A stretch of DNA of 64,000 nt from Haliotis rufescens (lineage: Eukaryota): NCBI RefSeq assembly GCF_023055435.1, contig NW_025963891.1:7936001-8000000 (forward strand), in the 5' to 3' direction. The notes below the pieces were generated by a model that searched no databases, was not told the origin of the DNA, and was given only the letters and a program-made list of their open reading frames with translations. The position numbers were made by a program, and so were the translations under genes. Shown in pieces: positions 107 through 56,968 of this stretch (position 1 is the first letter of the stretch; each line of letters opens with the position of its first letter).

Positions 107-1306
107 TTAGAGGAGTAGAATACAGAGAGTAATGCCACAACCTACGTTGAGGAACATGAATAGTCTTAGACAGAGGGCATCAAGCACATCAGAAACATCC
201 TTCCAGGCCACGCTGATAACAGGTTTCTCTTCTCTGTCGTTATCCCCATGAAGCTCCATTGTATCTGACGTATCTACCTTCATGTTTGGCTTCTGTGGAG
301 AACAGCATCTCAACAAGGTGACACATCTCTGCACAATTACAGGTACTTTACCTGTCTTCCGATGCACCCTAAGGATGATGATTGACATGGCCACAGAGAG
401 TGAGCTGAGTGTGAGAAGAATGGTGAGGTAGATGGTGAGGTAGGACGTCTGTAGGGATGTTCTTGGCATGTTGTAGGTCATCTGAGTCAGGAACACAGTG
501 AAAGAGAGTAGAACTGTCATGGAAAGCGCCACTTTGTCTCCGTATTCTAACGGCAGAGCAAAAACCAGGGAGCTGAGAAGGGATAGGAGCATGATAGGGA
601 TTATCAGGTTGAAGACATAGTATGCTGGTCGGCGCTTTAAGGTGATAGTAACGCGAAACATAGGATATCCCGCCATCAGAATTTCCTCTGAAAAATCTTT
701 TATTATCCACAATGGATTTCCATCTGTTGATCGGCTAGTGAACGACTTGTTTACTAAAGGTGTAAATCTTGCTTTATCCGGCGGTGTGTGCCAGGTGGAG
801 AGTAATATGGAACAGACCTGAGTATCAAACGGAAAATAGGAAATATCAAATTCACATCGAGTCTTGTAAAGATCTCCATGTCCCCAGCTTACTAAGCCTG
901 TGTTATGTATCAATACAAAGGCAGTTTTCTCCGCAAACATCTTTCTTTCGGTGACCGTATTGAAAATTGTTAAATCAGGAATCCACACACTATCACTAGA
1001 TATACTCAGATTTTCTTGTCCATCAAAGTCAGAAATGTTCCACTTCAGTGAATCATCAACCCATTGGAGGTAATAAAATCCATTGGTGGTCATTGACTGC
1101 TGCAACTCGTTCATTTCCGCTAAATCGAACAAATGAAATTGAATATTGATGTCCATTGCGTCTTCTGTTTCACGAGGAAACACATGTCGATTGTAATCAC
1201 TTAATACATGCTGTAACAGTCTCTTCTGTTCCTGAATCTTGTTGCAATTTATCAGTGTAAGGAAGGTAAAGAATAATTTGAGAAAGAAATGTCCACGGTA
1301 AGTCAT
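107..1306 (-). CDS. Intronless atypical nAChR-like Cys-loop channel subunit (gene 1, about 399 aa)
   Basis: Single ORF with signal peptide (MTYRGHFFLKLFFTFLTLINC), WIPD loop A, Cys-loop CEFDISYFPFDTQVC, pre-M1 LKRRP, M1-M4 and GDK at the M2 start. The ORF is open to 1468, but Met at 1306 precedes the hydrophobic signal and is conserved in the duplicate (ATG at 6795). Confidence 0.9.
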   Translation of the reverse strand: MTYRGHFFLKLFFTFLTLINCNKIQEQKRLLQHVLSDYNRHVFPRETEDAMDINIQFHLFDLAEMNELQQSMTTNGFYYLQWVDDSLKWNISDFDGQENLSISSDSVWIPDLTIFNTVTERKMFAEKTAFVLIHNTGLVSWGHGDLYKTRCEFDISYFPFDTQVCSILLSTWHTPPDKARFTPLVNKSFTSRSTDGNPLWIIKDFSEEILMAGYPMFRVTITLKRRPAYYVFNLIIPIMLLSLLSSLVFALPLEYGDKVALSMTVLLSFTVFLTQMTYNMPRTSLQTSYLTIYLTILLTLSSLSVAMSIIILRVHRKTGKVPVIVQRCVTLLRCCSPQKPNMKVDTSDTMELHGDNDREEKPVISVAWKDVSDVLDALCLRLFMFLNVGCGITLCILLL

Positions 1307-2379
1307 CTCAGCAGTTATCGCTTTCACGTTCGTCGATGCAGTGTCAGAAATCGCGTGTTCATCCATGGACCAGTGTTCTATATACATACAACACCGTTTA
1401 AACTCAAAGTTGGGTTTGTGGTAGTTATCTGTGGAACAGTTGTTTGTCAAGCAATTTACAACATACATCGATAATATATTTGAATGAAAATCCTTTCAGG
1501 TTTAGATAGAATAAAAAAGGTTATCACATAGTACTTTCCTAACGTGAACCTTTACCAAATAAAGGCTTACAATGGAATAGAGAATAACTCAACTAATGCG
1601 TAAATTAGGAGCAAATAAAAATGATAGGAAAATAAAGCAATGCCATTAGCGATTATTGACTTCTGTGTGACCGAGTGTTTTGATTAAGTGCATCTTGGAG
1701 GCAGTTATCAATAGCTGTCCACCTCCTCACTTTGTCATTGGTTAATGCGAGACTTCAGCTTTATGACGACGACCTGTAAATATTCGAATTTATCATTTAA
1801 CTAAAGCATTTATGCATGACATAAGCATATGAAATAAAAACATGTTTGTCATACCCTAATGACATAAGTATGCAAATTAGATTTGCAAATTAGCATGTGT
1901 TTTTGTACTTTTTTCTAGTTTTGCATGTCACCAAATATATTCACTGAACATTAATACTTTTCAAGTGGGCGATAGAAGGTTTATTTATTTCATGATAAGG
2001 ACCATCTTTGATAAATTGTCCCAAGTGTATGCATACATGACAGGGACTACATGGGCTACCATAATTACAAGATATCTTACATTTCTTCTCAGGTGAAATA
2101 CCATTGTTCAAATTGTGTTGTATTTTTTCTAACTTTTTGGATGGCATAAATGCACATACATTCACAAGATGCAAAATACTATGAGCTTTTAAAGTTCTAC
2201 ATAATATTAATGCATACACAAGGTTAAATGGTACAAATGTACTCTTGATATTATCCACTTGAAAATTCATTAGTTTTAGAGGTGTCAAAATTCCAATAGA
2301 ATCATACCTCTCTTGTCAAATCTCCAGTGGTGTCAGTTCTTTAATCAGGGAGTGCAGAGTCTATTGCAAGACAGAAACG

Positions 2380-3658
2380 TCAGTAACGTGTGTATGATCC
2401 ACGGACATTGACCACAGTTTCAACCCTACGCATCATACTCATTACAAGTTGTTGAATGCTTCTCTGAGGCAAACGGATCCATTCTTCATGAAGTGCGGCT
2501 TCAAGTCCAGCGAGATTTTGAACTGGGGGATCACGATGTCTGATTTTCCGGCCAAGAATGTCCCAGAGTTGCTTAATCAGATTAAGATCCGCACTACAGG
2601 CCGGCCAAGGAAGAGTGGCAATAGCTTCTTGACGGAAATAAGCCAAAACTGCCCGAGATCTGTGTGGTCTAGCATTGTCGTCCATGTAAACAGGTCTTGT
2701 CTGAAGAGGATGGTTGTCTAAATGAGGGACTACCACTGAACGAAGAACGGCATCTTGGTGTTGTTGGCCATTCAGGTTTCCACGAATTGTCACCAGCGGA
2801 AGTTTGCAGCCGACGGAAACACAACCCCATATCATGACAGACCCCCCGCCACATGCTAAGGTCTTCTGGATGTTCCTTGGTGCAAAACGAGTGTTATGTT
2901 GCCTCCAAATACGTATTCGACCATCAACAGTTCGTAGCAGCATTCGACACTCGTCAGACCAATGGATCCTTCTCCAGTTGGCCAAGTTCCATCGACTACG
3001 GTCACGACACCATATCAGACGATTCCGCATGTGCCTCTCAGTCAATTGAGGACGTTTTACTGGTCTTCTGGCGTTATAACCAGCCGCTCTGAGGCGACGC
3101 CTTACAGTCATCGTCGAGAGTCTCTGATGGGTAGTCTTAAATCTGTTGAAGTGGCAAATGGATTTCGTCTGACTATCCTGAAAAGACGTCTATCCTCTCT
3201 GTTAGAGGTCTTTCTTGGCCTACCAGACCTATGCCTGTCATTGACATCATTGGTTTGACCATGTTTGAGAATCAAACGAGTGATAACACTTTGATGACGA
3301 CCCATTTGTCTTGCAATGGCCCTGCATGACATGCCAGCATTTTTCATGCCTATCACTTGCCATCTTTCGGCGTTCGTTACCTTTCTTCTCACCATGGCTG
3401 ATTTTCAACCTCTATGGGAAGGGGAATCTCACATAGGAGCAAAATGCAACCGAGCGTCTGAAACTTGAATTTCACTATTTATAGGGTAGGGGAACTGCAG
3501 CAACACGTAAAGCACGCTTTCATTGTCATCTGGACAAATTTGGGTTCGTGAAACTATGGAAGCCTAATTCATACATAATCATATTTCGTATTTCTGATTC
3601 CCACACGTGAAATCAAAAGACTATGAATATGGTGGCGCTTAACTTTTGTACATGTGTA
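2380..3658 (-). mobile_element. Tc1/mariner (DD34E) transposon, inactivated
   Basis: Transposase is split by a frameshift near 3110: HTH part 3108-3395 (SGRPRKT), catalytic part 2380-3111 (WSDE, MDDNARPH, SADLNLIK with E>K at the D34E position, GSYTRY end). Tc1-like end at about 3630-3658; no matching left TIR found. Confidence 0.85.
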
Positions 3659-5737: not shown

Positions 5738-6795
5738 TTAGAGGAGTAAATACAGAGAGTAATGCCACAACCTACGTTGAGGAACATAAAGAGTCTTAGA
5801 CAGAGGGCATTAAGCACATCAGAAACATCCTTCCAGGCCACGCTGACAACAGGTTTCTCTCTTCTGTCGTTATCCCCATGAAGCTCCATTGTATCTGACG
5901 TATCTACCTTCATGTTTGGCTTCTGTGGAGAACATCATCTCAACAAGGTGACACATCTCTGCACTATTACAGGTACTTTACCTGTCTTCCGATGCACCCT
6001 AAGGATGAGGATTGACACAGAGTGTGAGCTGAGAGTGAGGAGAATGGTGAGGTAGATGGTGAGGTAGGACTTTTGAAGGGATGTTCTTGGCATGGTGTAG
6101 GTCATCTGAGTCAGGAACACAGTGAAAGAGGGCAGAGCTGTCATGGAGAGAGCCACGTTGTCTCCGTATTCTAAAGGCAGAGCAAACACCAGGGAGCTGA
6201 GAAGGGATAGGAGCGTGATAGAGATTATCAGGTTGAAGACATAGTATGCTGGTCGGCGCTTTAAGGTGATGGTAACGCGAATCATAGATATCCCGCCCTC
6301 AGAACTTCCCCTGAAAAATCTTTTATTATCCACAATGGATTTCCTCTTATGTATCGGTCAGTCAGCGACCTATTTATGAAAGGTGCAAATAGTGTTTTAT
6401 CTGACTGTGTCCCAAGTGGTGAGTGAAATGGAACACACCTGCGTGTCAAACGGAAAATAGGCAACATCAAAGTCACACTGAGTCTTGTAAAGATCCCCAT
6501 GACCCCAGCTAACTAATCCTGTGTTATGTATGCATGCACGGGCGGTTTTCTCCTCAAACATCTTTCTTTCTGTAACCCTGTTTATAACTGTTAAGTCAGG
6601 AATCCACACACTATCACTTGATATACACAGATTTTCTTGTCCATCAAAGTCAGAAATGTTCCACTTCAGTTAATCATCAACCCATTGGAAGTTAAAAAAA
6701 CAACATTGGTGGTCATTGACGGCTGCAACAGGTTCATTTCATCAGTGCCGGGAAGGTAAAGAATAAAGTGTGAAAAAAAGTCCACGGTAAGTCAT
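5738..6795 (-). pseudogene. Pseudogenised duplicate of gene 1 (nAChR-like)
   Basis: Colinear with 107-1306. Has a roughly 130-nt N-terminal deletion near 6740, frameshifts near 6405, 6285 and 5748, and a TGC>TGA stop at 5935. ORF fragments encode WIPDLTVIN, CDFDVAYFPFDTQVC and LKRRPAYYVFNL. Confidence 0.9.
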
Positions 6796-8302
6796 GTTAG
6801 CAGTCATCACTTTCTCCATTCTCGTGATTCGATGCAGTGTCAAAATTCGCGTGTTCGCCATATGTACCGATGTACGAAGCTATCTGAAAACAGCCAACAC
6901 TGTATTCAGTGAGATCCATCTAGTATTGATCAGTGTTGATTACGCCTGCTTTTAGCATATATGCATGGATCCAAAAGCATATGCACAAGCAGTATGGTTG
7001 ATCATAGCATAAGAACAAAATGTAAAAAACATTTTAATTCACTGTTGATAACATCTTAACAGTAACGGTTGACATTCAATTTTCATTTTTGAATACCTTT
7101 ATTTACAATGTGGTTCACTTGTTTGAGAAACACCTAAAGCTTACCAACAAACACTGACAATTCCTGAATCAACCGCCACCTCTGTGATCAGTGTGACCTT
7201 TAGATGCATGTTTGACCTGTATCCAAGTTATGCACCATTTTGCCATTCCACCACCCCTGGAGCTTCTCGTCTAATTGGTGTGGGTGAGAGTGGGTATGCG
7301 GACTGTTGTGTTGTGGGGACAGTGTACTATATAGTTCAGAGATAAGCCGGTGTATATTGCCTGTGATATATTGTCATCAACTTGAACTTTAATGTGGTTG
7401 GATGTACATTATTAGAGGGTGGACCCCCTTGTCTATAATTACAAAACAAAGTATCTACTCCGTACATTCATATACGTACGGCCATGAAATACGATCTTAG
7501 ACAAAAACACAACATACAAACAATAGAATGTTAATCTTATTATTATAACTGTGTATCAGGTATAAAAGCGTGAATGATGGATATGCAATTTAGCATATCT
7601 TGGGGTACCTGACCTGAATATTATTACAAAGAGAATAACAAGTCTTGGCCATTCGCAGAGAGAGATTCAATTAGGCATAAAATTAAAAATAGCCATGAAA
7701 ATTAAATGAATGGACTACTGAAAAACAGTGGTGACACCAGGTGTTTGCGAAAAGGGTCAGCATGTCCTGCCCTACAGGTAGCACCACACTATAGGGGGGT
7801 ACGATGGCAGCCAAGTCACCAAGCCTGACAGCCAGGCCCAATTTGTTGCATTTTGGACAAACATTGGTTATTGGTGCCAAAAAGTATGGGATAGTGGGAA
7901 TCTTTTGATCTATATATTACTTGCAAATGGAAATGATGTTATCATATCTCCTGGGGAGTTGGCGATCACAACTTATGCGTTTTAATGGTTGGTGTGATGA
8001 GATGGTCGCGCACAGGGTCATTAAATTCGAAATTTGCATTTTGCAGCCAAAGTCACTCAAATCTGGTAAAACCACCTCTGTTGGCCAGACATGCACGGAA
8101 TCTTAGAGACATGCTTCTGATGAGACGACTAATGTCAGCTTGACTCATATTGTTCCAGTCATCATGACGAGTTGTAGATGGATTTTGACTTTGAAGTACA
8201 CGTCTCAGACGTATTCAAAGCGGGAAAGATCAGGAACGAGTGCTGGCCATAGCATGACATGGATGTTTTGTTGTACATCGGTATGGTACCGCTCCTGGCT
8301 TC

Positions 8303-8898: not shown

Positions 8899-9874
8899 CG
8901 TGTATTGTAGCCCACTATGACAGTTGTTCGTCTAAGTTAAAAGTCGGTGAGTGGCGAATTTAAAGGTGCTAAAGGTGTTGGCTGAATTCTAAAGGTGAAT
9001 CGACAGGCACAGACATGAACGTGATGTAGGTATATGCCTACGTGATGTACTTCGTGTCACTCCCATGCAAACATGGTGCCACGCGTGACGACAAACAGAC
9101 GTTGACGTTGATCCATAGGATTATTATTATTATTAATTATACCTAGGTGCTGGCACTCGCGTAGGTTGACATGCGTACTGTCACGCGTGTCTCCGTACAC
9201 ACGTCATGTACTACGTGTTTCCATGCAAACGTGATGCCATGCGTGTCTTCAAACACACGTTGATCCACAGGATTAGTGATCTTATTTAGTATATTTTGAG
9301 AATAGAGAGAGAGAGATCGATAGACATACGTGGTGTTTGACTCGTGTCTCCAGGCACAAGTGGTGTTTCACGCGTCTCTATGTATATATATTTATTTTAT
9401 TATTTTGAGACGTACCATGGTGGTGTCACGCGTAGGCGTGTGCCTCCAAGAGGACGAGGGGGAGGGTGTGGGTTCTTTTGGATGGTTGTTGTTTGGGTTG
9501 GCAAAGCAAGCAGGGTGGGTGTCGATTAGTCTGAACACCATGTGGACTCCATCATGTCTTACCAGGCAGCTGATCTTTCAAGCATGGCCTTTCTCTTTTA
9601 TCTATTTTTTATTTTAATTCATCACTTTTTTCTTAACTTTTACAACGAGCATGTGCACTGACATGACAGACGCACAGACAGACAACGTAGACGACATCTC
9701 AACTCAACCTCTACCCTCGGTTCGGCATTCTATTGGAGTTGAGATCAATCAAAACACAAAGAGTCAGTTCAATTTATCCCTGTTTAATAATGAACAACAA
9801 CTTGGATACAGGGCAAACAATGTGAAACAATGCGAAGAATGCGAAAAAGTAGATGACAACCTTCGTCATCGACA

Positions 9875-11112
9875 TCACACAGGTAGCCTGCTCAATGTTG
9901 CAACGAGTGCCGCTGTGGCTGCTTCTGCTGCTGCGTGGAGCGCGTCGAAGAGTTCTGTTAGTGAGGGTGTTGCTACTGGTGCTTCTATTGCTGTGGGGGT
10001 GGTGTCTGCCACTGCTGGTGCCACTGCTGCTGCCACTGGTTTTGGTGTGGGTGCTGTTGATGAGGGTGCTGTGGTGACTGCCACTCGTTTTGGTGTGGGT
10101 GCTGCAGCATCTGAGGGGTCCATCGGTGATGGTGAAGGTGGTGGTGATGATGACTGCGCTGAAGTTACTCCTGTTACTACGGTGACGAGTGCAGCTGTTA
10201 CTGCTTCTACTGCTGTGGGTGTGGCGGCTGTGGCTGTGGCTGTTGCTGCTGCCCAGGATAGTGCTGAGGCGAATTTTTTGTTGCTGCTGCTTCTCGGGGT
10301 GTCCCCTTCAATGCCCTCACACCTGCCGCGCATTGCGCCATCTGTGGTGCATTGATGAATACTTTTAGTCAGGGTGTTGTTGCTGCGTCTGCAGCTGCAT
10401 CTTCTTCTTCCTGTGTGGTGGCTGCTTCTGCTGCTGCTACAGGTGTTGTTGATGGTGTTGTCTGCGATGAATACTGCTGCAGCAAGGGTGCATGTGAGGT
10501 TACTATTTCAACGAGTGCTACTGCTGCTGCTTCTATGGCTGCAGGTGTTGCTGCGGCTGATGCTAGTATCGCTGTCCATAGTGCTGAGTCGAGTTGTTGT
10601 GCTGTTTTCACTGCTTCTGAGGGTGTTGTTGTTAGTATGGGTGCTGCTTCTGCCGCTGCTGACGCTGCAATGAGTGCTGAGGTGAGTACGTCTGTTTCTT
10701 TTAACGTTCCCTCTGCTACCACTGTGGTAAGTGCTGTGACGTGTGGTGCTGCTGCTTTTTGGGCTGCTTTGAGTATGGATGTTGTGAGTGCTGCTGCTTC
10801 AGGTGTTGGGGTTGACTTTTCCACGTAGAGTTCCATGCTGGGGATGCAGATGCCATACTCCGGAGGCAGAAATGTGTCCACAACACTCTTTAACTTCTCA
10901 TGCATGCAGTCATGGGAAGCTTTGTACAAGGCACTTGCTCTCATCATCTCCCAATGTAGAACTAGCCGCTCCCCCAGGATGTCCGCCATTGCACGACTGA
11001 AATGCTCGCTATTGAGAACGTCCTCGTCCTTGTCCCCCTTCTCCTTCTTCTTCTGTTTGATGATGATGCGGTAGTGGCCATTGTTGTCATACGGTAGTAG
11101 TAGTCGGAACAT
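9875..11112 (-). pseudogene. Maverick accessory gene, Ala/Thr-rich protein of unknown function (disrupted)
   Basis: ORFs 10369-11112 and 9875-10333 join into about 410 aa if one TGA (10369) is read through and one base is added in the A-run near 10275. Upstream TTTAAA (about 11172) and CCAAT boxes (about 11200, 11224). Confidence 0.55.
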
Positions 11113-11452
11113 GATGGTGTTGTTGCTTGGACCGTTCAGTGAAAAGTGATGGCCAGGGAACGTTGGTCGTATTTAAAGACACTGACTCTCTGCTTTCTTA
11201 TTGGTGGAAAATCCGACCTTCTGATTGGCTGGTTTCTGTCCCACACGCCACCCAGGGTACGTCCTTAGTGTTTCTTTTCCAAAGGGTCAGGCTTGTAGCG
11301 TGAGAGAGAGCACAACCTCGTTTCGGCCCATTAGAGTCCACCATGGCCCGAGCCCCGCCTATGATGGGTCGACAATCCAGGCTTCTGATTGGTCAGATTT
11401 CGATCCGTTTTTTTCCATGTCGATTCAGTTTCGATCCGTTGTCATGAATTTT

Positions 11453-13792
11453 TTATAGAAAGTCGTCTCTGTACCCAAAGGGCAGCGTGTCTACAGGCAG
11501 CCCTGTGTTTTCATCGTAGAAGAGACGTCGCTTGTCGTACACGGTACGATAGTCTTTTCGAGTGGGTCGGGTCACAAGAGCGTTTTCGTGCCGAGGTCCT
11601 TTTCGAATGATGTGATGAGGGTAATCCAAACTGATTTTTTCCCCCTCTTTCCCAGGCCGTTGTCAGTCCTTTCATGGTGTCAAAGTTGAGATGTTGTTGG
11701 TTTCTGTAATTCAAAGTGAACCCTCGCACTTTGCAGGTCGTGCGCGTTCCATCGGGTCTGGGGTTCATTAACTCATAGCCATAGCTTTTGGGGCCTCCTG
11801 ACACAAACGTCTTGATGGTGTTTCCGACCAGTTCATCTGTAAACTCACCCAACGAATGACCCAGCTCTGGATTCGCGTCGTGGGGTCGATGAATGTAAAT
11901 GACGCTGTCCGTGTCAAAGTACAAGACCCTGCGGCCCACCAGGGCAAGGGTCTCGTACAGCTTGAGACGTGCTTGGGCGGTGACCCAAGCAGCGATGGCA
12001 ACATTGAAATGAGAATGAGGGGTTTGGAATTCTTTCTGCTGGGTATAGGTCACTTCCACCATGTGTTCGTTGACAACGGTAACATCCTCGATGGTATTGC
12101 GTTCATTCCTCCCCAAGGCAAAGTACTGTACAGGATCGTTTATATAGATGTTCTGACTGTAGTCTACCCGTTGTCCAAACTTGACCCAGAGCGAATTCAG
12201 TTGCATCTTGGCAATCGTGCGACGTCCTGTTTTTTTTTTGATGCGGTCCTTGTCCAACCCAATGCCTTCTTTGTCGTAGATCTCCTGGATGTAAGCGTCG
12301 TGATCCTTACATCCTTTCGGGGTATCCCCTGGCTTCGAGCTTCTCCTTGAAATGTCGATCGATATAAGTGTCAAAGAGTCCTACTTGCTGGGTGTCAGGG
12401 TCATGCTGTGCAAAGGTGTCAAAATGCCAAACGTCGTAGATCTGAAGCACCTGGTAGTCATACTTCTTCACGGCTTCCTGGAGTTCTACGGTGGCGTACG
12501 TGCCCACCCATGACCTCTCTTCGTCTATGTGCTCGCAGGGGGAGTCTGACCGGGTATCGGCACACGTACGGCAGAAAGGACAGAGCAGTTTGCCACCCGA
12601 TCTGTAAGGCAGTAGCGGATGGTAGAGTCGTTTCGGGGGTAGGACACGGCATTGGATCAGGCCTTTCAGTTCAAACAACGTGTCCACAGGGGGTTGATGG
12701 AGAAGGGTCGGGTGTCCCGTGGGAAACGCTCCGGTCTTACAAATGTAAGGATAAAGGGAACAAATATCGATGTACTTGATGGTTTCACCTTCTTGGGCTT
12801 CGTAGCATAATCGCTTGGCATTGGTGCGTCCTCCATAGAAGGCGTCGCGAGGGTTGAGCGGCCCAGGGACGTGGATACAGTGGGGCCCCTGCAAGAACGC
12901 ACGCAGAGCAGAGTCCACCTGTTGCATTTTTGTAAACTCATGCTCCCACAGGGTGACGATCCGTTTCACCTCAGGGTGTTGACTCAAGAGACTCAAGCGG
13001 TAGTGGGTGTCGGTGTAACAGGCTCCCAACGACGGCCCCGGAACGGGATGCGGTTCTCCACGTTGGGTCTTGTGACAGGTCTGGCACCCATGCCAGAAAC
13101 AGCCCAGGAATTCGTAGATGGTGCCTTTCGCTGGATCGTAGCTATCCACACTGTACCGATATTGGCCCTCTCCACACGTGAACTCTTTTTCACCTCCATT
13201 CCTCGCGTGCTGGAGTTGCAGATGGGGGTCCGTTTCCATCAGATAATGGAGCCAGTGCATACAGGCCTGGTAATAGTTTCTCTTGGGTTGGTAGCCTTGA
13301 GGTGGAAGAATGGCGATGGTATTGGGTTTCAGGTCGTGTTTTCAGAAGGATTTCATGGTGAACGCGGCAGCTGTCATCACTTCTACAAAGGGACCCATGC
13401 CAACCGAGTTGATGGCGTTCTGTCGGAAGTCGGCACATCCCCGTCTCAAAATGTCCACATCGCTCTGGCAGTAGGCTAATAGTTCTCCTTGTAAGTCGAA
13501 CAAGGCTCCTTCTTGCACTTTTTGAGTATGCCACTGGAGGAAGACGGTGCGTTCCGCGGGAGACATGCCATAGGGATCGTACATGACGGCTGGTGGATAG
13601 GGACCTCTGTAGGTCTGGTTGGCTTCGGTATTGAAAAAGTGTGGAAAATACCCTTTTTTCAGTTCTTTCAGCCCAAAGCTCTTTGGAAATGCTTTCAGGG
13701 GGTAAGGTATGAAATTTAAACTGTCTTCGAAACACAACTGTCCGAGGGTCACCTGCAAAATTTGTTGACCATGTCGAATCTTGGTGGGGAGT
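11453..13792 (-). pseudogene. Protein-primed DNA polymerase B (pPolB), frameshifted and 5'-truncated
   Basis: DSLNF, KGYFPHFFN, YCQSDV (ExoIII), inserted EFLGCFWHGC domain, YGGRTNA, YIDICSLYP, KMQLNSLWVKFGQ, YFDTDS, GPKSYGY, KVRGFTLN, C-terminal TLPFGY ending at TAA 11453. Spread over ORFs 13342-13833, 12307-13260 and 11511-12374. Confidence 0.9.
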
Positions 13793-13896
13793 TTGTCTGG
13801 TCCAGACTCGATTGTTTCACAGACCGCCGTCATATAGCTGGAATATTGCTGAGTGCGGCGTTAAACAACAAATCAATCAACCAACCAACCAACCAA
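13793..13896 (+). mobile_element. SINE 3' fragment truncating pPolB
   Basis: gtctggtccagactcg...cagaccgccgtcatatagctggaatattgctgagtgcggcgttaaacaac followed by (AACC)n; same family as 15708, 20325, 23572, 36940, 50863 and 57953. Confidence 0.8.
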
Positions 13897-18068: not shown

Positions 18069-19253
18069 TCAAATGACAAGGGCAAAGAAAATAATACCAC
18101 AACCAACATTAAGCAGGAAGAAGAATCTTAGACACAGAGCATCAAGTACAAGAGATACATCTTTCCAGGTGACCACTGTATTGCACTTCTTCTGATCAAT
18201 GTCTTCAACTGGATCGTCCTGTTCATCAGATTCCATTGCATTCAAAGGCGGATTAGGAATAACATATTTCCAAAATGTGACATAATTCTGCAACACTACA
18301 GGTACATCTCCCGTTCTCTGATGGATCTTAAGAATGAAAACTGATATTGCCACAGTAAGGGAGCTGAGAGTGAGGAGCAGGGTCATGTAGATGGTGAGGT
18401 AGGACGTTTGTAGGGACGTCCTGGGCATGTTGTTGCTCATCTGCGTCAGAAACAAGCTGAATGAGAGGAGAACCGTCATGGAGAGAGACACTTTATCCCC
18501 GTATTGTATAGGCAGAGCAAAGACCACGGAGCTGAGGAGGGACAGAAACATGACGGGGATGATGAGATTGAGGACATAATATGACGCCCGACGCTGTAAG
18601 ATTGCTGTTACAACGATTTCAGGAAATTTGTTATCAGCGGTAGCGGATGACAAAGTTTTAATCTTCCACAGTCCATTCACATTAGTTGTGACGGTACTGC
18701 TGTTTTCATCAATTGAAGGTATGAAACGAGCAGATATGTTCGTGGTCGTCCACGTGGAGAGATTCAGATGGCAGGTCTGAGTATCAAATGGAAAATGTGT
18801 AATGTCAAAGTCACACTGACTTTGGTAGAGATCCCCTCGTTCCCATTCAACCGTTCCAGAATGATGTACACAAGCAGGCGCGTTCAGATTGTTCAGCAGC
18901 TTGCGCTCTTCAACTGTGTTCATGAGCGTTATGTCGGGCATCCATATATTTTCACTTGACATACAGATCATCTCTATCCCTGCATAATCCGTAATGTTCC
19001 ACCTCAATGAATCATCCCGCCACTTAAAGGAAAACCATCCATTTGTGGTCATCGATTGTTGCCTCTCATTAAGCTCAGTAATTTGCGACAAAGTAAATCT
19101 TACGTCTATATTCAACCTGGTTTCACTTGGAAAAACTTGCGGCTCATAGTCATCTTGCAAAAAATGAAGAAGTCTCTTCTGTTCTTTGATGCTGGTCCCT
19201 CCACATAAACAAATCAATGTAGTCAAGCAGATGAAATGTTTGAAGATCACCAT
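18069..19253 (-). CDS. Intronless atypical nAChR-like subunit, paralog A (394 aa)
   Basis: Complete ORF: signal peptide, WMPD, Cys-loop CDFDITHFPFDTQTC, QRR pre-M1, four TM segments, GDK, short M3-M4 loop. Confidence 0.95.
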   Translation of the reverse strand: MVIFKHFICLTTLICLCGGTSIKEQKRLLHFLQDDYEPQVFPSETRLNIDVRFTLSQITELNERQQSMTTNGWFSFKWRDDSLRWNITDYAGIEMICMSSENIWMPDITLMNTVEERKLLNNLNAPACVHHSGTVEWERGDLYQSQCDFDITHFPFDTQTCHLNLSTWTTTNISARFIPSIDENSSTVTTNVNGLWKIKTLSSATADNKFPEIVVTAILQRRASYYVLNLIIPVMFLSLLSSVVFALPIQYGDKVSLSMTVLLSFSLFLTQMSNNMPRTSLQTSYLTIYMTLLLTLSSLTVAISVFILKIHQRTGDVPVVLQNYVTFWKYVIPNPPLNAMESDEQDDPVEDIDQKKCNTVVTWKDVSLVLDALCLRFFFLLNVGCGIIFFALVI

Positions 19254-22109: not shown

Positions 22110-23250
22110 GACGCAAAGGCGAGATTGACATTTAGGAACGGAAACGTGTCATAGCCATGATTGAAGTTGGCATGACTACAAGGGCCACAGCAGCCAGGCA
22201 GTACATTACAAGACTGAACCAACGATTTTCAGCAGACAGGACGTACCAGAGACCGACCACGCCCAGGGTAACAACGTGTGACAACAGCTAGGGAAGACCG
22301 ACAGATTGTGATGGCTCATCGAACACTTCCGGCGTCCAGAACAACAGCTACCATCGTAGGTCGACGAGGAGATCCACTGGTTTACGTGCCTGTCGTCCTC
22401 ATGTAAGCCCAATTCGGACCCTAAGGCACCGACATGAACTACAGTGGTCGTTGAGGCACAGACAATGGTTACTTCGACGCTTGTATGGCGTTCTCTTCTC
22501 CGACGAATCCAGATTCCACCTCAGGAACGCCGATGGACGTATTCGGGTATGGCGTCGCCGGGTCGAACGTTATCACGATGCTTGTATTGTGCAGACTGAT
22601 CGATGGGGTGGCGGAAATGTGAGGTTTAGGGCGGTTTCAGTTTTCGGCCCAAAACACAGCTCCGTGTATGCATAGGTCGTGTTAATGCAGTTTACTACAG
22701 GGGCGCCATTTTCAAACGTCACGTTGCCCCCTGTTTCAGTCAACACAAAGAGCTGCATACTTTCCAACAGGACAACGCCAGACCACATACAGCACGTGCT
22801 TCTCAGGACTTCCTGGCACAGAGTAACGTACCTGTTATGCCATGGTCTGCATTATCTCCCGATCTATCGCCCACCGAGCTCTTGTGGGACTATATGGGAC
22901 AGTGCATTGCACGTCGACCTCAAATCGCCAGCGATTGAGAGCTCGCACTTGTCCTGCAACGTGAATGGTGTAGGATACCACAAGTTGTTATCCAGAGACT
23001 GATAGTGTCCATGAGAAGGCGTTATGTGGCATGCATTGCGACCGGGGGCGGTCATACCCGATAATGACTTTGTCTTTGTACGCCTTGTATGTTCCATTTC
23101 CTCTATATTAAAATTGTGTACATTTCAATGACACTTGGCATTACTATTGTGGAACTAAGTTATCTGAGAATGATTGTAGTACACAGCCAACACCATAAAA
23201 TTGGTTTAGTGTCAACTTTACTTTTTACCCCTGGTGCGTTTTCAGTATAT
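22110..23250 (+). mobile_element. Decayed Tc1/mariner transposon
   Basis: Fragments VLFSDESRF, RWGGG, FQQDNARPH, SPDLSP..LWD and GGHTR across frameshifts. A further minus-strand IEHLWD fragment lies at about 21620-21640. Confidence 0.75.
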
Positions 23251-27741: not shown

Positions 27742-28926
27742 TCAAATGACAAGGGCAAAGAAAATAATACCACAACCAACATTAAGCAGAAAGAATAATT
27801 TAAGACACAGAGCATCAACTGCAAGTGATACATCTTTCCAGGTGACCACTGTATTGCACTTCTTCTGATCAATGTCTTCAACTGGATCGTCCTGTTCATC
27901 AGATTCCATTGCATTCATAGGCGGATTAGGAATAACATATTTCCAAAATGTGACATAATTCTGCAACACTACAGGTACATCTCCCGTTCTCTGATGGATC
28001 TTAAGAATGAAAACTGATATTGCCACAGTAAGGGAGCTGAGAGTGAGGAGCAGGGTCATGTAGATGGTGAGGTAGGACGTCTGTAGGGATGTCCTGGGCA
28101 TGTTGTTGCTCATCTGCGTCAGAAACACGCAGAATGAGAGGAGAACCGTCATGGAGAGAGACACTTTATCCCCGTATTGTATAGGCAGAGCAAAGACCAC
28201 GGAGCTAAGGAGGGACAGAAACATGACAGGGACGATGAGATTGAGGACATAATATGACGCCCGACGCTGTAAGATTGCTGTTACAACGATTTCAGGAAAT
28301 TTGTTATCAGCTTTAGCGGATGACAAAGTTTTAATCTTCCACAGTCCATTCACATTAGTTGTAACGGTACTGCTGTTTTCATCAATTGAAGGTATGAAAC
28401 GAGCAGATGCGTTCGTGGTCGTCCATGTGGCGAGATTCAGATGACATGTCTGGGTATCAAATGGAAAATGTGTAATGTCAAAGTCACACTGACTGTGATA
28501 GAGGTCGCCATGGATCCATTCTACCATTCCAGAATGATGTACACTAGCAGGCGCGTTCAGATTGTTCAGCAGCTTGCGCTCTTCAACTGTGTTCATGAGC
28601 GTTATGTCGGGCATCCATATATTTTCACTTGACATACAGATCATCTCTATCCCTGCATAATCCGAAATGTTCCACCTCAATGAATCATCCCGCCACTTAA
28701 AGGAAAACCATCCATTTGTGATCATCGATTGTTGCCTCTCATTAAGCTCAGTAATTTGCGACAAAGTAAATCTTACGTCTATATTCAACCTGGTTTCACT
28801 TGGAAAAACTTGCGGCTCATAGTCATCTTGCAAAAAATGAAGAAGTCTCTTCTGTTCTTTGATGCTGGTCCCTCCACATAAACAAATCAATGTAGTCAAG
28901 CAGATGAAATGTTTGAAGATCACCAT
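27742..28926 (-). CDS. Intronless atypical nAChR-like subunit, paralog B (394 aa)
   Basis: Complete ORF colinear with A; distinct loop E (ASVHHSGMVEWIHGDLYH) and M2 (SFCVF). Confidence 0.95.
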   Translation of the reverse strand: MVIFKHFICLTTLICLCGGTSIKEQKRLLHFLQDDYEPQVFPSETRLNIDVRFTLSQITELNERQQSMITNGWFSFKWRDDSLRWNISDYAGIEMICMSSENIWMPDITLMNTVEERKLLNNLNAPASVHHSGMVEWIHGDLYHSQCDFDITHFPFDTQTCHLNLATWTTTNASARFIPSIDENSSTVTTNVNGLWKIKTLSSAKADNKFPEIVVTAILQRRASYYVLNLIVPVMFLSLLSSVVFALPIQYGDKVSLSMTVLLSFCVFLTQMSNNMPRTSLQTSYLTIYMTLLLTLSSLTVAISVFILKIHQRTGDVPVVLQNYVTFWKYVIPNPPMNAMESDEQDDPVEDIDQKKCNTVVTWKDVSLAVDALCLKLFFLLNVGCGIIFFALVI

Positions 28927-41422: not shown

Positions 41423-42607
41423 TCAAATGACAAGGGCAAAGAAAATAATACCACAACCAACATTAAGCAGAAAGAATAATTTAAGACACAGAGCATCAAC
41501 TGCAAGTGATACATCTTTCCAGGTGACCACTGTATTGCACTTCTTCTGATCAATGTCTTCAACTGGATCGTCCTGTTCATCAGATTCCATTGCATTCATA
41601 GGCGGATTAGGAATAACATATTTCCAAAATGTGACATAATTCTGCAACACTACAGGTACATCTCCCGTTCTCTGATGGATCCTAAGAATGAAAACTGATA
41701 TTGTCACAGCAAGGGAGCTTAGAGTGAGGAGCAGGGTCATGTAGATGGTGAGGTAGGACGTCTGTAGGGACGTCCTGGGCATGTTGTTGCTCATCTGCGT
41801 CAGAAACAAGCTGAATGAGAGGAGAACCGTCATGGAGAGAGACACTTTATCCCCGTATTGTATAGGCAGAGCAAAGACCACGGAGCTGAGGAGGGACAGA
41901 AACATGACGGGGATGATGAGATTGAGGACATAATATGACGCCCGACGCTGTAAGATTGCTGTTACAACGATTTCAGGAAATTTGATATCAGCGGTAGCGG
42001 ATGACAAAGTTTTAATCTTCCACAGTCCATTCACATTAGTTGTGACGGTACTGCTGTCTTCATTAATTGAAGGTATGAAACGAGCAGATGCGTTCGTGGT
42101 CGTCCATGTGGAGAGATTCAGATGACAGGTCTGGGTATCAAATGGAAAATGTGTAATGTCAAACTCACACTGACTTTGGTAGAGATCCCCGTGTTCCCAT
42201 ACAACCGTTCCAGAATGATGTACACAAGCAGGCGCATTCAGATTGTTCAGCAGCTTGCGCTCTTCAACTGTGTTCATGAGCGTTATGTCGGGCATCCATA
42301 TATTTTCACTTGACATACAGATCATCTCTATCCCTGCATAATCCGAAATGTTCCACCTCAATGAATCATCCCGCCACTTAAAGAAAAACCATCCATTTGT
42401 GGTCATAGATTGTTGCCTCTCATTAAGCTCCGTAATTTGCGACAAAGTAAATCTTACATCTATATCCAACCTGGTTTCACTTGGAAAAACTTGCGGCTCA
42501 TAGTCATCTTGCAAAAAATGAAGAAGTCTCTTCTGTTCTTTGATGCTGGTCCCTCGACATAAACAAATCAATGTAGTCAAGCAGATGAAATGTTTGAAGA
42601 TCACCAT
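41423..42607 (-). CDS. Intronless atypical nAChR-like subunit, paralog C (394 aa)
   Basis: Complete ORF colinear with A; distinct loop D (WFFFKW), loop E (TVVWEH), loop F (SINEDSS) and loop C (ADIKF). Confidence 0.95.
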   Translation of the reverse strand: MVIFKHFICLTTLICLCRGTSIKEQKRLLHFLQDDYEPQVFPSETRLDIDVRFTLSQITELNERQQSMTTNGWFFFKWRDDSLRWNISDYAGIEMICMSSENIWMPDITLMNTVEERKLLNNLNAPACVHHSGTVVWEHGDLYQSQCEFDITHFPFDTQTCHLNLSTWTTTNASARFIPSINEDSSTVTTNVNGLWKIKTLSSATADIKFPEIVVTAILQRRASYYVLNLIIPVMFLSLLSSVVFALPIQYGDKVSLSMTVLLSFSLFLTQMSNNMPRTSLQTSYLTIYMTLLLTLSSLAVTISVFILRIHQRTGDVPVVLQNYVTFWKYVIPNPPMNAMESDEQDDPVEDIDQKKCNTVVTWKDVSLAVDALCLKLFFLLNVGCGIIFFALVI

Positions 42608-55783: not shown

Positions 55784-56968
55784 TCAAATGACAAGGGCAA
55801 AGAAAATAATACCACAACCAACATTAAGCAGAAAGAATAATTTAAGACACAGAGCATCAACTGCAAGTGATACATCTTTCCAGGTGACCACTGTATTGCA
55901 CTTCTTCTGATCAATGTCTTCAACTGGATCGTCCTGTTCATCAGATTCCATTGCATTCATAGGCGGATTAGGAATAACATATTTCCAAAATGTGACATAA
56001 TTCTGCAACACTACAGGTACATCTCCCGTTCTCTGATGGATCTTAAGAATGAAAACTGATATTGCCACAGTAAGGGAGCTGAGAGTGAGGAGCAGGGTCA
56101 TGTAGATGGTGAGGTAGGACGTCTGTAGGGATGTCCTGGGCATGTTGTTGCTCATCTGCGTCAGAAACAAGCTGAATGAGAGGAGAACCGTCATGGAGAG
56201 AGACACTTTATCCCCGTATTGTATAGGCAGAGCAAAGACCACGGAGCTGAGGAGGGACAGAACCATGACAGGGATGATGAGATTGAGGACATAATATGAC
56301 GCCCGACGCTGTAAGATTGCTGTTACAACGATTTCAGGAAATTTGTTATCAGCGGTAGCGGATGACAAAGTTTTAATCTTCCACAGTCCATTCACATTAG
56401 TTGTGACGGTACTGCTGTTTTCATCAATTGAAGGTATGAAACGAGCAGATGTGTTCGTGGTCGTCCACGTGGAGAGATTCAGATGGCAGGTCTGAGTATC
56501 AAATGGAAAATGTGTAATGTCAAAGTCACACTGACTTTGGTAGAGATCCCCTTGTTCCCATTCAACCGTTCCAGAATGATGTACACAAGCAGGCGCATTC
56601 AGATTGTTCAGCAGCTTGCGCTCTTCAACTGTGTTCATGAGCGTTATGTCGGGCATCCATATATTTTCACTTGACATACAGATCATCTCTATCCCTGCAT
56701 AATCCGAAATGTTCCACCTCAATGAATCATCCCGCCACTTAAAGGAAAACCATCCATTTGTGGTCATCGATTGTCGCCTCTCATTAAGCTCCGTAATTTG
56801 CGACAAAGTAAATCTTACGTCTATATCCAACCTGGTTTCACTTGGAAAAACTTGCGGCTCATAGTCATCTTGCAAAAAATGAAGAAGTCTCTTCTGTTCT
56901 TTGATGCTGGTCCCTCCACATAAACAGATCAATGTAGTCAAGCAGATGAAATGTTTGAAGATCACCAT
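55784..56968 (-). CDS. Intronless atypical nAChR-like subunit, paralog D (394 aa)
   Basis: Complete ORF colinear with A; loop E TVEWEQ, loop B TNTSA. Confidence 0.95.
   Translation of the reverse strand: MVIFKHFICLTTLICLCGGTSIKEQKRLLHFLQDDYEPQVFPSETRLDIDVRFTLSQITELNERRQSMTTNGWFSFKWRDDSLRWNISDYAGIEMICMSSENIWMPDITLMNTVEERKLLNNLNAPACVHHSGTVEWEQGDLYQSQCDFDITHFPFDTQTCHLNLSTWTTTNTSARFIPSIDENSSTVTTNVNGLWKIKTLSSATADNKFPEIVVTAILQRRASYYVLNLIIPVMVLSLLSSVVFALPIQYGDKVSLSMTVLLSFSLFLTQMSNNMPRTSLQTSYLTIYMTLLLTLSSLTVAISVFILKIHQRTGDVPVVLQNYVTFWKYVIPNPPMNAMESDEQDDPVEDIDQKKCNTVVTWKDVSLAVDALCLKLFFLLNVGCGIIFFALVI

Follow-up and report, generated by a model that had tools for sequence, protein, structure and literature searches.

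Intronless nAChR-like genes of an abalone array: lost acetylcholine-binding residues and paralog divergence focused on the ligand pocket

A tandem array of nAChR-like genes in the abalone Haliotis rufescens has lost residues that grip acetylcholine, and its near-identical copies differ mostly around the ligand pocket. The loss of these residues, together with the fast change of the pockets, makes it likely that the genes sense other chemicals. We consider it probable that their products are cation channels gated by ligands that are not acetylcholine; by analogy with receptors described in cephalopods, a chemosensory use is the likeliest one, with a manner of working similar to that of the chemotactile receptors (CRs). 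A lost aromatic box and a short loop C are by themselves ordinary for this gene family, and intronless molluscan expansions with altered ligand sites have already been published. The pocket-focused divergence of paralogs is what the present analysis adds; it does not figure in the sections of Jiao et al. 2019 (PMC6896357) and of the MolluscaGenes study (PMC13174522) considered here.

The array and its ligand site

The window, meaning the whole stretch of 64,000 nucleotides analyzed here (assembly GCF_023055435.1, contig NW_025963891.1, positions 7,936,001 to 8,000,000), contains four near-identical copies, A to D (95-97% identity), together with gene 1 of a second subfamily and a pseudogene:

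107..1366, minus strand: gene 1, second subfamily; about 51% identity to gene A; F55, F93, W149, Y195; 14-step loop C
5758..6800 (bounds approximate), minus strand: pseudogene of the gene 1 subfamily, with frameshifts and stops
18069..19253, minus strand: gene A; intact single exon, 394 aa; signal peptide, ligand-binding domain, M1-M4, short M3-M4 loop; PF02931 (E 1e-40) and PF02932; mean pLDDT 80.9
27742..28926, minus strand: gene B; intact; 95% identity to gene A
41423..42607, minus strand: gene C; intact; changes in loops D, E, F and C
55784..56968, minus strand: gene D; intact; 97% identity to gene A

The coding sequence of each intact gene in the window is one open frame that runs from the signal peptide through M4 without introns, and a domain scan found PF02931 and PF02932 in all five intact genes. 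With these two domains, a Cys-loop of the C-x13-C form and four transmembrane helices, the genes are nAChR-like Cys-loop channels. Both in sequence and in fold, nAChRs are the best matches of gene A, its AlphaFold model (built from an 81-sequence alignment) giving top Z scores of 30.5 to 28.8 in a fold search. The closest named proteins to the window genes come from Haliotis rubra, H. asinina and H. rufescens. A genome search extended the tandem layout from the six copies in the window to two more upstream and four about 2 Mb off. Four runs presumed to be RNA, with no tissue recorded, yielded fragments of 150-270 bases at a depth of 2-3.5, some of them lying beside the coding sequence.

Several other elements share the window. 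Genes B, C and D sit in tandem duplicated units of about 14 kb (26300-58500, 94-97% identity), two of which hold a decayed LINE with remnants of reverse transcriptase and RNase H. A Tc1/mariner transposase remnant (2380-3404) lies between gene 1 and the pseudogene, and a frame at about 22200-23100 resembles it by look only. Broken frames of a protein-primed type B DNA polymerase (11511-13860, PF03175) represent a Polinton/Maverick-like remnant, which is adjoined by a low-complexity Ala/Thr-rich frame (9600-11200).

Gene A was aligned to alpha7 (PDB sequence), alpha4 and alpha9. We take alpha7 mature numbering to be the precursor numbering minus 22, an offset that reproduces the textbook numbers. 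The ligand-site features of gene A, with alpha7 equivalents in brackets, and its pore helix are:

19029..19037, minus strand: loop D, W73 (W55, retained in A-D) and S75 (Q57 position; F in copy C)
18921..18923, minus strand: loop A, M111 (Y93), from the alignment
18837..18872, minus strand: loop E, C128 (L109), E136 (Q117), E138 (L119) and R139; most variable stretch among A-D
18771..18815, minus strand: Cys-loop, intact, C147 to C161
18750..18752, minus strand: loop B, W168 (W149), retained, from the alignment
18624..18668, minus strand: beta9-loop C, W196 to F210 (W174 to Y195); 14 steps, no Y188, no CC
18441..18497, minus strand: M2 pore helix, with D at -1', S2', T6', L9', L13', T16' and Q17'

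The preliminary description had proposed that the loop A tyrosine Y93 is replaced (by M in A-D, F in gene 1 and I in the pseudogene), that Y188 and C190-C191 are missing from loop C, and that the interval from W174 to the Y195 equivalent takes 14 steps in both subfamilies, seven residues fewer than the 21 of alpha7; the alignment agrees on all three points. The same interval measures 21 steps in alpha4 as well, and 18 in the Torpedo beta chain. The deletion is firmly anchored, the beta9 tryptophan and the pre-M1 arginine being invariant alignment columns, and in the model of gene A a turn of three residues joins beta9 (196-207) to beta10 (211-221). Chance does not account for the short loop C, since the same length is common to all 11 genes of the clade in this genome and to all three proteins measured from two other abalone species. 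The further claim that only W55, W149 and an aromatic residue at 195 remain holds for A-D and fails for gene 1, which has F55, F93, W149 and Y195 plus a tyrosine at 57, position 55 being F in its two sisters also. The aromatic box, which had been called dismantled, has indeed lost residues, and that of gene 1 is therefore better described as remodeled, with four aromatic positions kept. The interval first assigned to these changes, 18615..18950, leaves W55 (19035-19037) just outside.

As CC and Y188 are absent from loop C and Y93 is replaced, the window genes fall outside the alpha subunits. The hallmark of an accessory subunit is the lack of CC with W55 kept: CC is absent from all of them, and position 55 is W in A-D and F in the gene 1 subfamily.

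Gene A also carries two extra cysteines, C97 (18963-18965) and C128 (18870-18872), on predicted strands near the complementary face. They occur together in seven sequences (A, C, D, L005, L006 and two H. rubra proteins), the pseudogene having both as well; neither is found in gene 1, B has only C97, and L008 and L009 have only C128. The two possibly form, at the rim of the pocket, a disulfide specific to the clade.

Ligand-site residues across the intronless family

The genome search scored 105 of 611 candidates, so that the counts given here are lower bounds. All 105 loci were fetched; 97 passed an open-frame filter, and the removal of two short ones left 95 frames, each of at least 340 aa. 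The abalone genome therefore contains 95 or more long nAChR-like frames of a single exon, most of them arranged in tandem. Four of the eight loci that were filtered out are broken, and the other four are intact intronless members without one or both Cys-loop cysteines (L047 and L053 in G000:C23; L091 and L101 in G000:C334).

None of the 95 frames carries the CC of loop C, and two have Y93. W149 is found in 67, W55 in 49 and an aromatic residue at 55 in 79, while position 93 is occupied by 17 different residues and the positions of L109, Q117 and L119 by 14 residue types each. As an in-genome control we used 16 intron-type exons, found with an alpha9/10-like query. W149 and the full loop C length are present in all 16 and CC in 15; the span from the beta9 tryptophan to the pre-M1 arginine scored 33 in 15 of them and 32 in one, in which the pattern had stopped one residue early. 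The sole intron-type non-alpha exon seen, locus L119, is of full length and keeps Y188, Y195 and W149. Given 0/95 frames with CC and 2/95 with Y93, against 15/16 intron-type exons with CC, the lost box is the norm for the abalone intronless family and is not peculiar to the two subfamilies of the window. Tandem intron-type alpha subunits exist too (L112 and L114-L116, with L108 and L113, in G000:C1); the tips of their loops B and C are near-invariant, in contrast to the intronless arrays.

Loop C length sets the clade apart within this genome. The span just defined is 26 in all 11 clade genes, 27-33 in the other 83 anchorable frames and 33 in alpha7; the 11-gene clade has the shortest loop C in the abalone genome, among the at least 95 long intronless frames. 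For comparison outside this genome, 102 single-domain proteins out of 146 new ones were combined with 10 others, and 111 of these 112 relatives could be anchored. A span of 26 or less was measured in 17 of the 111, three of them clade members, which leaves 14 of the other 108 with a loop C equally short or shorter; those that are named come from clam, scallop, mussel and abalone. The short loop C is thus extreme within this genome, not among molluscs, and a seven-residue deletion unique to the clade is ruled out by the equally short relatives in clam, scallop and mussel. Among the sequences in our tree, the 11-gene clade is monophyletic (support 0.999) and consists of abalone proteins only, its nearest named neighbors being other abalone and limpet proteins.

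Pocket divergence, pore constraint and competing readings

Copies A-D are variable at 18 of 200 ECD residues, and they vary at four of five alpha7 complementary-face positions (Q57, L109, Q117 and L119; hypergeometric p 2e-4). This five-site set was fixed after the loop E differences had been seen. The ligand-position list for this face in PMC10133702, in the part of that paper used here, adds Y168, whose approximate equivalent is invariant among A-D, and with it the count becomes 4/6. Without gene B, two of the five sites vary (p 0.025), and the 29-site pocket set scores 4/11 (p 0.057). The gene 1 subfamily is independently enriched, 14 of its 39 variable sites falling in the 29-site set (p 1e-4); the L008-L010 subfamily is not enriched in that set (6/33, p 0.34). 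When pocket sites were compared with 49 polar sites outside the pocket over 20 close-paralog clusters, the pocket was the more variable in 15 clusters and the less variable in 5 (Wilcoxon p 0.003); the same comparison without loop C gives 12 clusters against 8 (p 0.04).

Substitution rates were assessed with codon models in our own code, without a PAML cross-check. M2a beats M1a in the 17 other clusters (p 1e-9), with five of the seven flagged sites in loop C, and the comparison is not significant for A-D (p 0.125) or for the 11-gene clade (p 0.08); gene conversion and indels can inflate tests of this type. Under a shared synonymous rate, with nuisance parameters fixed under the null, omega reaches 7.0 at the five sites of A-D and 1.8-1.9 in loop C. 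Under class-specific synonymous rates pocket omega falls to about 1, from which it does not differ (p 0.3-0.65), and we make no claim of a pocket omega above 1. It follows that relaxed constraint fits the rates as well as selection does. The rate of change in the pocket is close to neutral or above it.

The pore behaves otherwise. An acidic residue at -1' is a signature of cation channels. It is present in all 95 frames, with L9' in 89 and S or T at 16' in 81, and D-1' and Q17' are confined to the 11-gene clade (11/95). From the acidic -1' and established M2 rules, we predict a cation-selective pore. Omega in the codon models is 0.24 in M1-M3 and 0.40-0.47 in the rest of the ECD, against 0.89 in the pocket: the pore and the core are under purifying selection, and the low value in M1-M3 indicates that the genes are maintained as channels. 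The open pocket for non-cholinergic ligands envisaged in the preliminary description gains from this purifying selection on the pore and from the pocket-focused divergence; it does not stand as a trait special to two subfamilies, being family-wide.

Part of the divergence among A-D has a history of its own, since two of the four variable complementary-face sites stem from a patch in gene B:

28489..28551, minus strand: gene B, loop E patch; differs from A, C and D at 11-12 of 63 bases (remainder of the gene: about 2%), with four silent changes included

We looked for a donor among the other clade loci of the assembly and rejected this origin, the eight others all differing from the patch at 20 or more of the 63 bases. 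In its protein pattern the patch resembles H. rubra P0008, and at 138-139 gene D is like H. rubra P0007. H. rubra and the H. rufescens genome thus have two loop E types in common, although whole proteins group by species in the tree. These patterns suggest that the array has been homogenized with loop E escaping, convergence being the alternative. In gene A, 7 of the 12 private base differences cluster in M4 (codons 367-379, about 18117-18155), possibly as a second converted patch.

A different account of this variation is that the genes encode accessory (non-alpha) subunits, which would supply the complementary face beside a CC-bearing alpha subunit. The channel would then be gated by acetylcholine, its accessory subunits having a vestigial loop C of their own and loop D/E changes that tune pharmacology. 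We regard this as unlikely, although the most variable face is the very one that an accessory subunit would supply, which speaks against our preferred reading. A-D retain W55, an omega near 1 in loop C is in keeping with a vestigial loop, no fewer than 15 alpha subunits with CC are available in the genome as possible partners, and vertebrate beta chains are likewise shortened in loop C (18 steps). However, the intron-type non-alpha exon at locus L119 retains its full length with Y188, Y195 and W149; furthermore, W55 in only 49/95 frames and 14 residue types at each of the L109, Q117 and L119 positions fit poorly with one shared ligand. To our knowledge, some 100 accessory genes in birth-and-death arrays have no parallel among synaptic receptors, which also counts against this account.

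It is quite improbable, in our estimation, that the pocket has simply been released from constraint, in channels gated away from the orthosteric site (by protons, by metal ions or through constitutive opening) or in largely dispensable copies subject to birth and death. The pocket omega of 0.89, indistinguishable from 1, and the pseudogenes within the arrays would fit, and a polar 16' (S or T in 81/95) may weaken the gate. Published cases lend some weight as well: the zinc-gated ZAC has a very short and poorly conserved loop C according to the portion of PMC11536092 considered, and in oyster low or no expression is commoner in intron-poor than in intron-rich copies (PMC6896357, in part). Against it count the retention of W149 in 67/95 frames and of an aromatic residue at 55 in 79/95, the greater variability of pocket sites than of other polar sites, the concentration of M2a sites in loop C, and the two loop E types found in both H. 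rubra and this genome.

Least probable are low-affinity receptors for choline, betaine or acetylcholine with a reduced cation-pi site made of W149, W55 and aromatic 195: A-D still have three of the five box aromatics and gene 1 has four, and A and D carry the acidic E117 and E119 close by, but Y188 and the CC cap are gone, the loop is presumably too short to close over a small cation, and all canonical subunits examined in the genome keep the full loop length and W149.

Under the reading that we prefer, of channels opened by other chemicals, an intronless ancestor (a retrocopy) would have lost the cation-pi box and then been copied in tandem, the duplicated units of this array being about 14 kb long. 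Its descendants would assemble as homopentamers or as mixed pentamers with other family members. The beta9-beta10 hairpin would be too short to cap the site, which would become a shallow cleft with W149, aromatic 55, aromatic 195 and variable residues of loops D and E as its walls. Each paralog may be tuned to different ligands through positions 57, 109, 117 and 119 and loop C, and the intact Cys-loop would couple binding to the gating of the cation pore. Octopus CRT1 suggests, by analogy, that the likeliest use is the sensing of an environmental chemical.

More speculatively, and with less than even confidence, the abalone may possess an nAChR-built repertoire of about 100 ionotropic chemoreceptors, a gastropod parallel to the octopus chemotactile receptors, in which array paralogs would be homogenized over most of their length, except for a loop D/E ligand face that stays distinct from copy to copy, and old loop E types would be shared between abalone species. 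Nature would then have supplied a set of nearly identical receptors with different ligand specificities, for seaweed, settlement, predator or mate cues. If the genes are chemoreceptors, they would give a farmed gastropod a further pathway, based on ion channels, for grazing, for the settlement of larvae or for the detection of predators, and they would represent a large-scale shift from nAChR to chemoreceptor beyond the cephalopods. Intronless nAChR-like genes number in the hundreds among molluscs, and functional tests of such clades are named a priority in the sections of PMC13174522 considered here. With 95-97% identity and differences that lie mostly around the pocket, A-D make a small and clean set for ligand finding and specificity mapping.

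Comparison with known systems

The broadest setting is the molluscan intronless expansion, as described in the sections of two papers considered here. Jiao et al. (PMC6896357) report 99-217 nAChR genes in bivalves, many of them intronless and in tandem; only 33 of 132 oyster genes are of alpha type, and diverse ligands are suggested. The MolluscaGenes study (PMC13174522) describes clades with substituted ligand residues, finds CR-like sequences in gastropods and puts forward gastropod chemosensory roles as a proposal. The abalone genes have in common with this expansion their single exon, tandem arrays and lineage-specific growth, and also a mostly non-alpha character, altered ligand residues and a cation motif of the GEK type; the abalone clade differs by the shortest loop C of its genome and by a private M2 (D-1', Q17'). 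The abalone and limpet proteins that are its nearest named relatives in our tree are likewise of the expanded type. The sections of Jiao et al. examined do not cover abalone, and 'Haliotis' is absent from the main text of PMC13174522, supplements aside. Likewise, no abalone-specific account of the family was found at the level of titles and abstract openings, and supplements may list abalone sequences.

With human alpha7 the genes share the fold (Z 29.8, rmsd 2.4 A over 344 residues), the Cys-loop, W55 (in A-D), W149, L9' and an acidic -1'. They differ in having no Y93, Y188 or C190-C191 and a loop C seven residues shorter, as well as T16', Q17' and N20', a short M3-M4 loop and no introns. The Alvinella receptor Alpo4 (PDB 8BX5; Z 25.8) is another lophotrochozoan nAChR-like protein without the vicinal disulfide. 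According to the part of PMC10338036 considered, this worm protein is an orphan, unresponsive to acetylcholine and giving no current with any tested ligand; unlike the abalone genes, it retains the full set of five box aromatics (F103, W159, Y199, Y205 and W65) and is an isolated member, not a young tandem array.

The cephalopod chemotactile receptors CRT1 (PDB 8EIS, 9E6B) and CRB1 (8EIZ) are, in the accounts considered, nAChR-derived and intronless like the abalone genes, with a ligand site that is altered and diversifying. Octopus CRT1 binds microbial metabolites and progesterone, and its pocket is under diversifying selection while AChR sites are conserved (bioRxiv 10.1101/2025.10.28.685082 and 10.1101/2025.03.03.641191, with the review PMC11526382, each in part); a short loop C in CRT1 is implied by the portion of PMC11536092 considered. 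In fold and in identity, however, CRT1 (Z 22.6, 25% identity) and CRB1 (Z 22.5, 20%) are no closer to gene A than ordinary nAChRs (Z 28.8-30.5, 27-29%), and neither was among the best 60 matches of the PDB sequence searches; an Atlas search returned generic nAChR clusters only, and our tree has no identified cephalopod CR sequence among its members. The pockets differ too, that of A-D being polar and acidic (S57, E117, E119) and that of CRT1 hydrophobic. The likeness of the abalone genes to the cephalopod chemotactile receptors would be an analogy of working, and we make no claim of membership in one clade.
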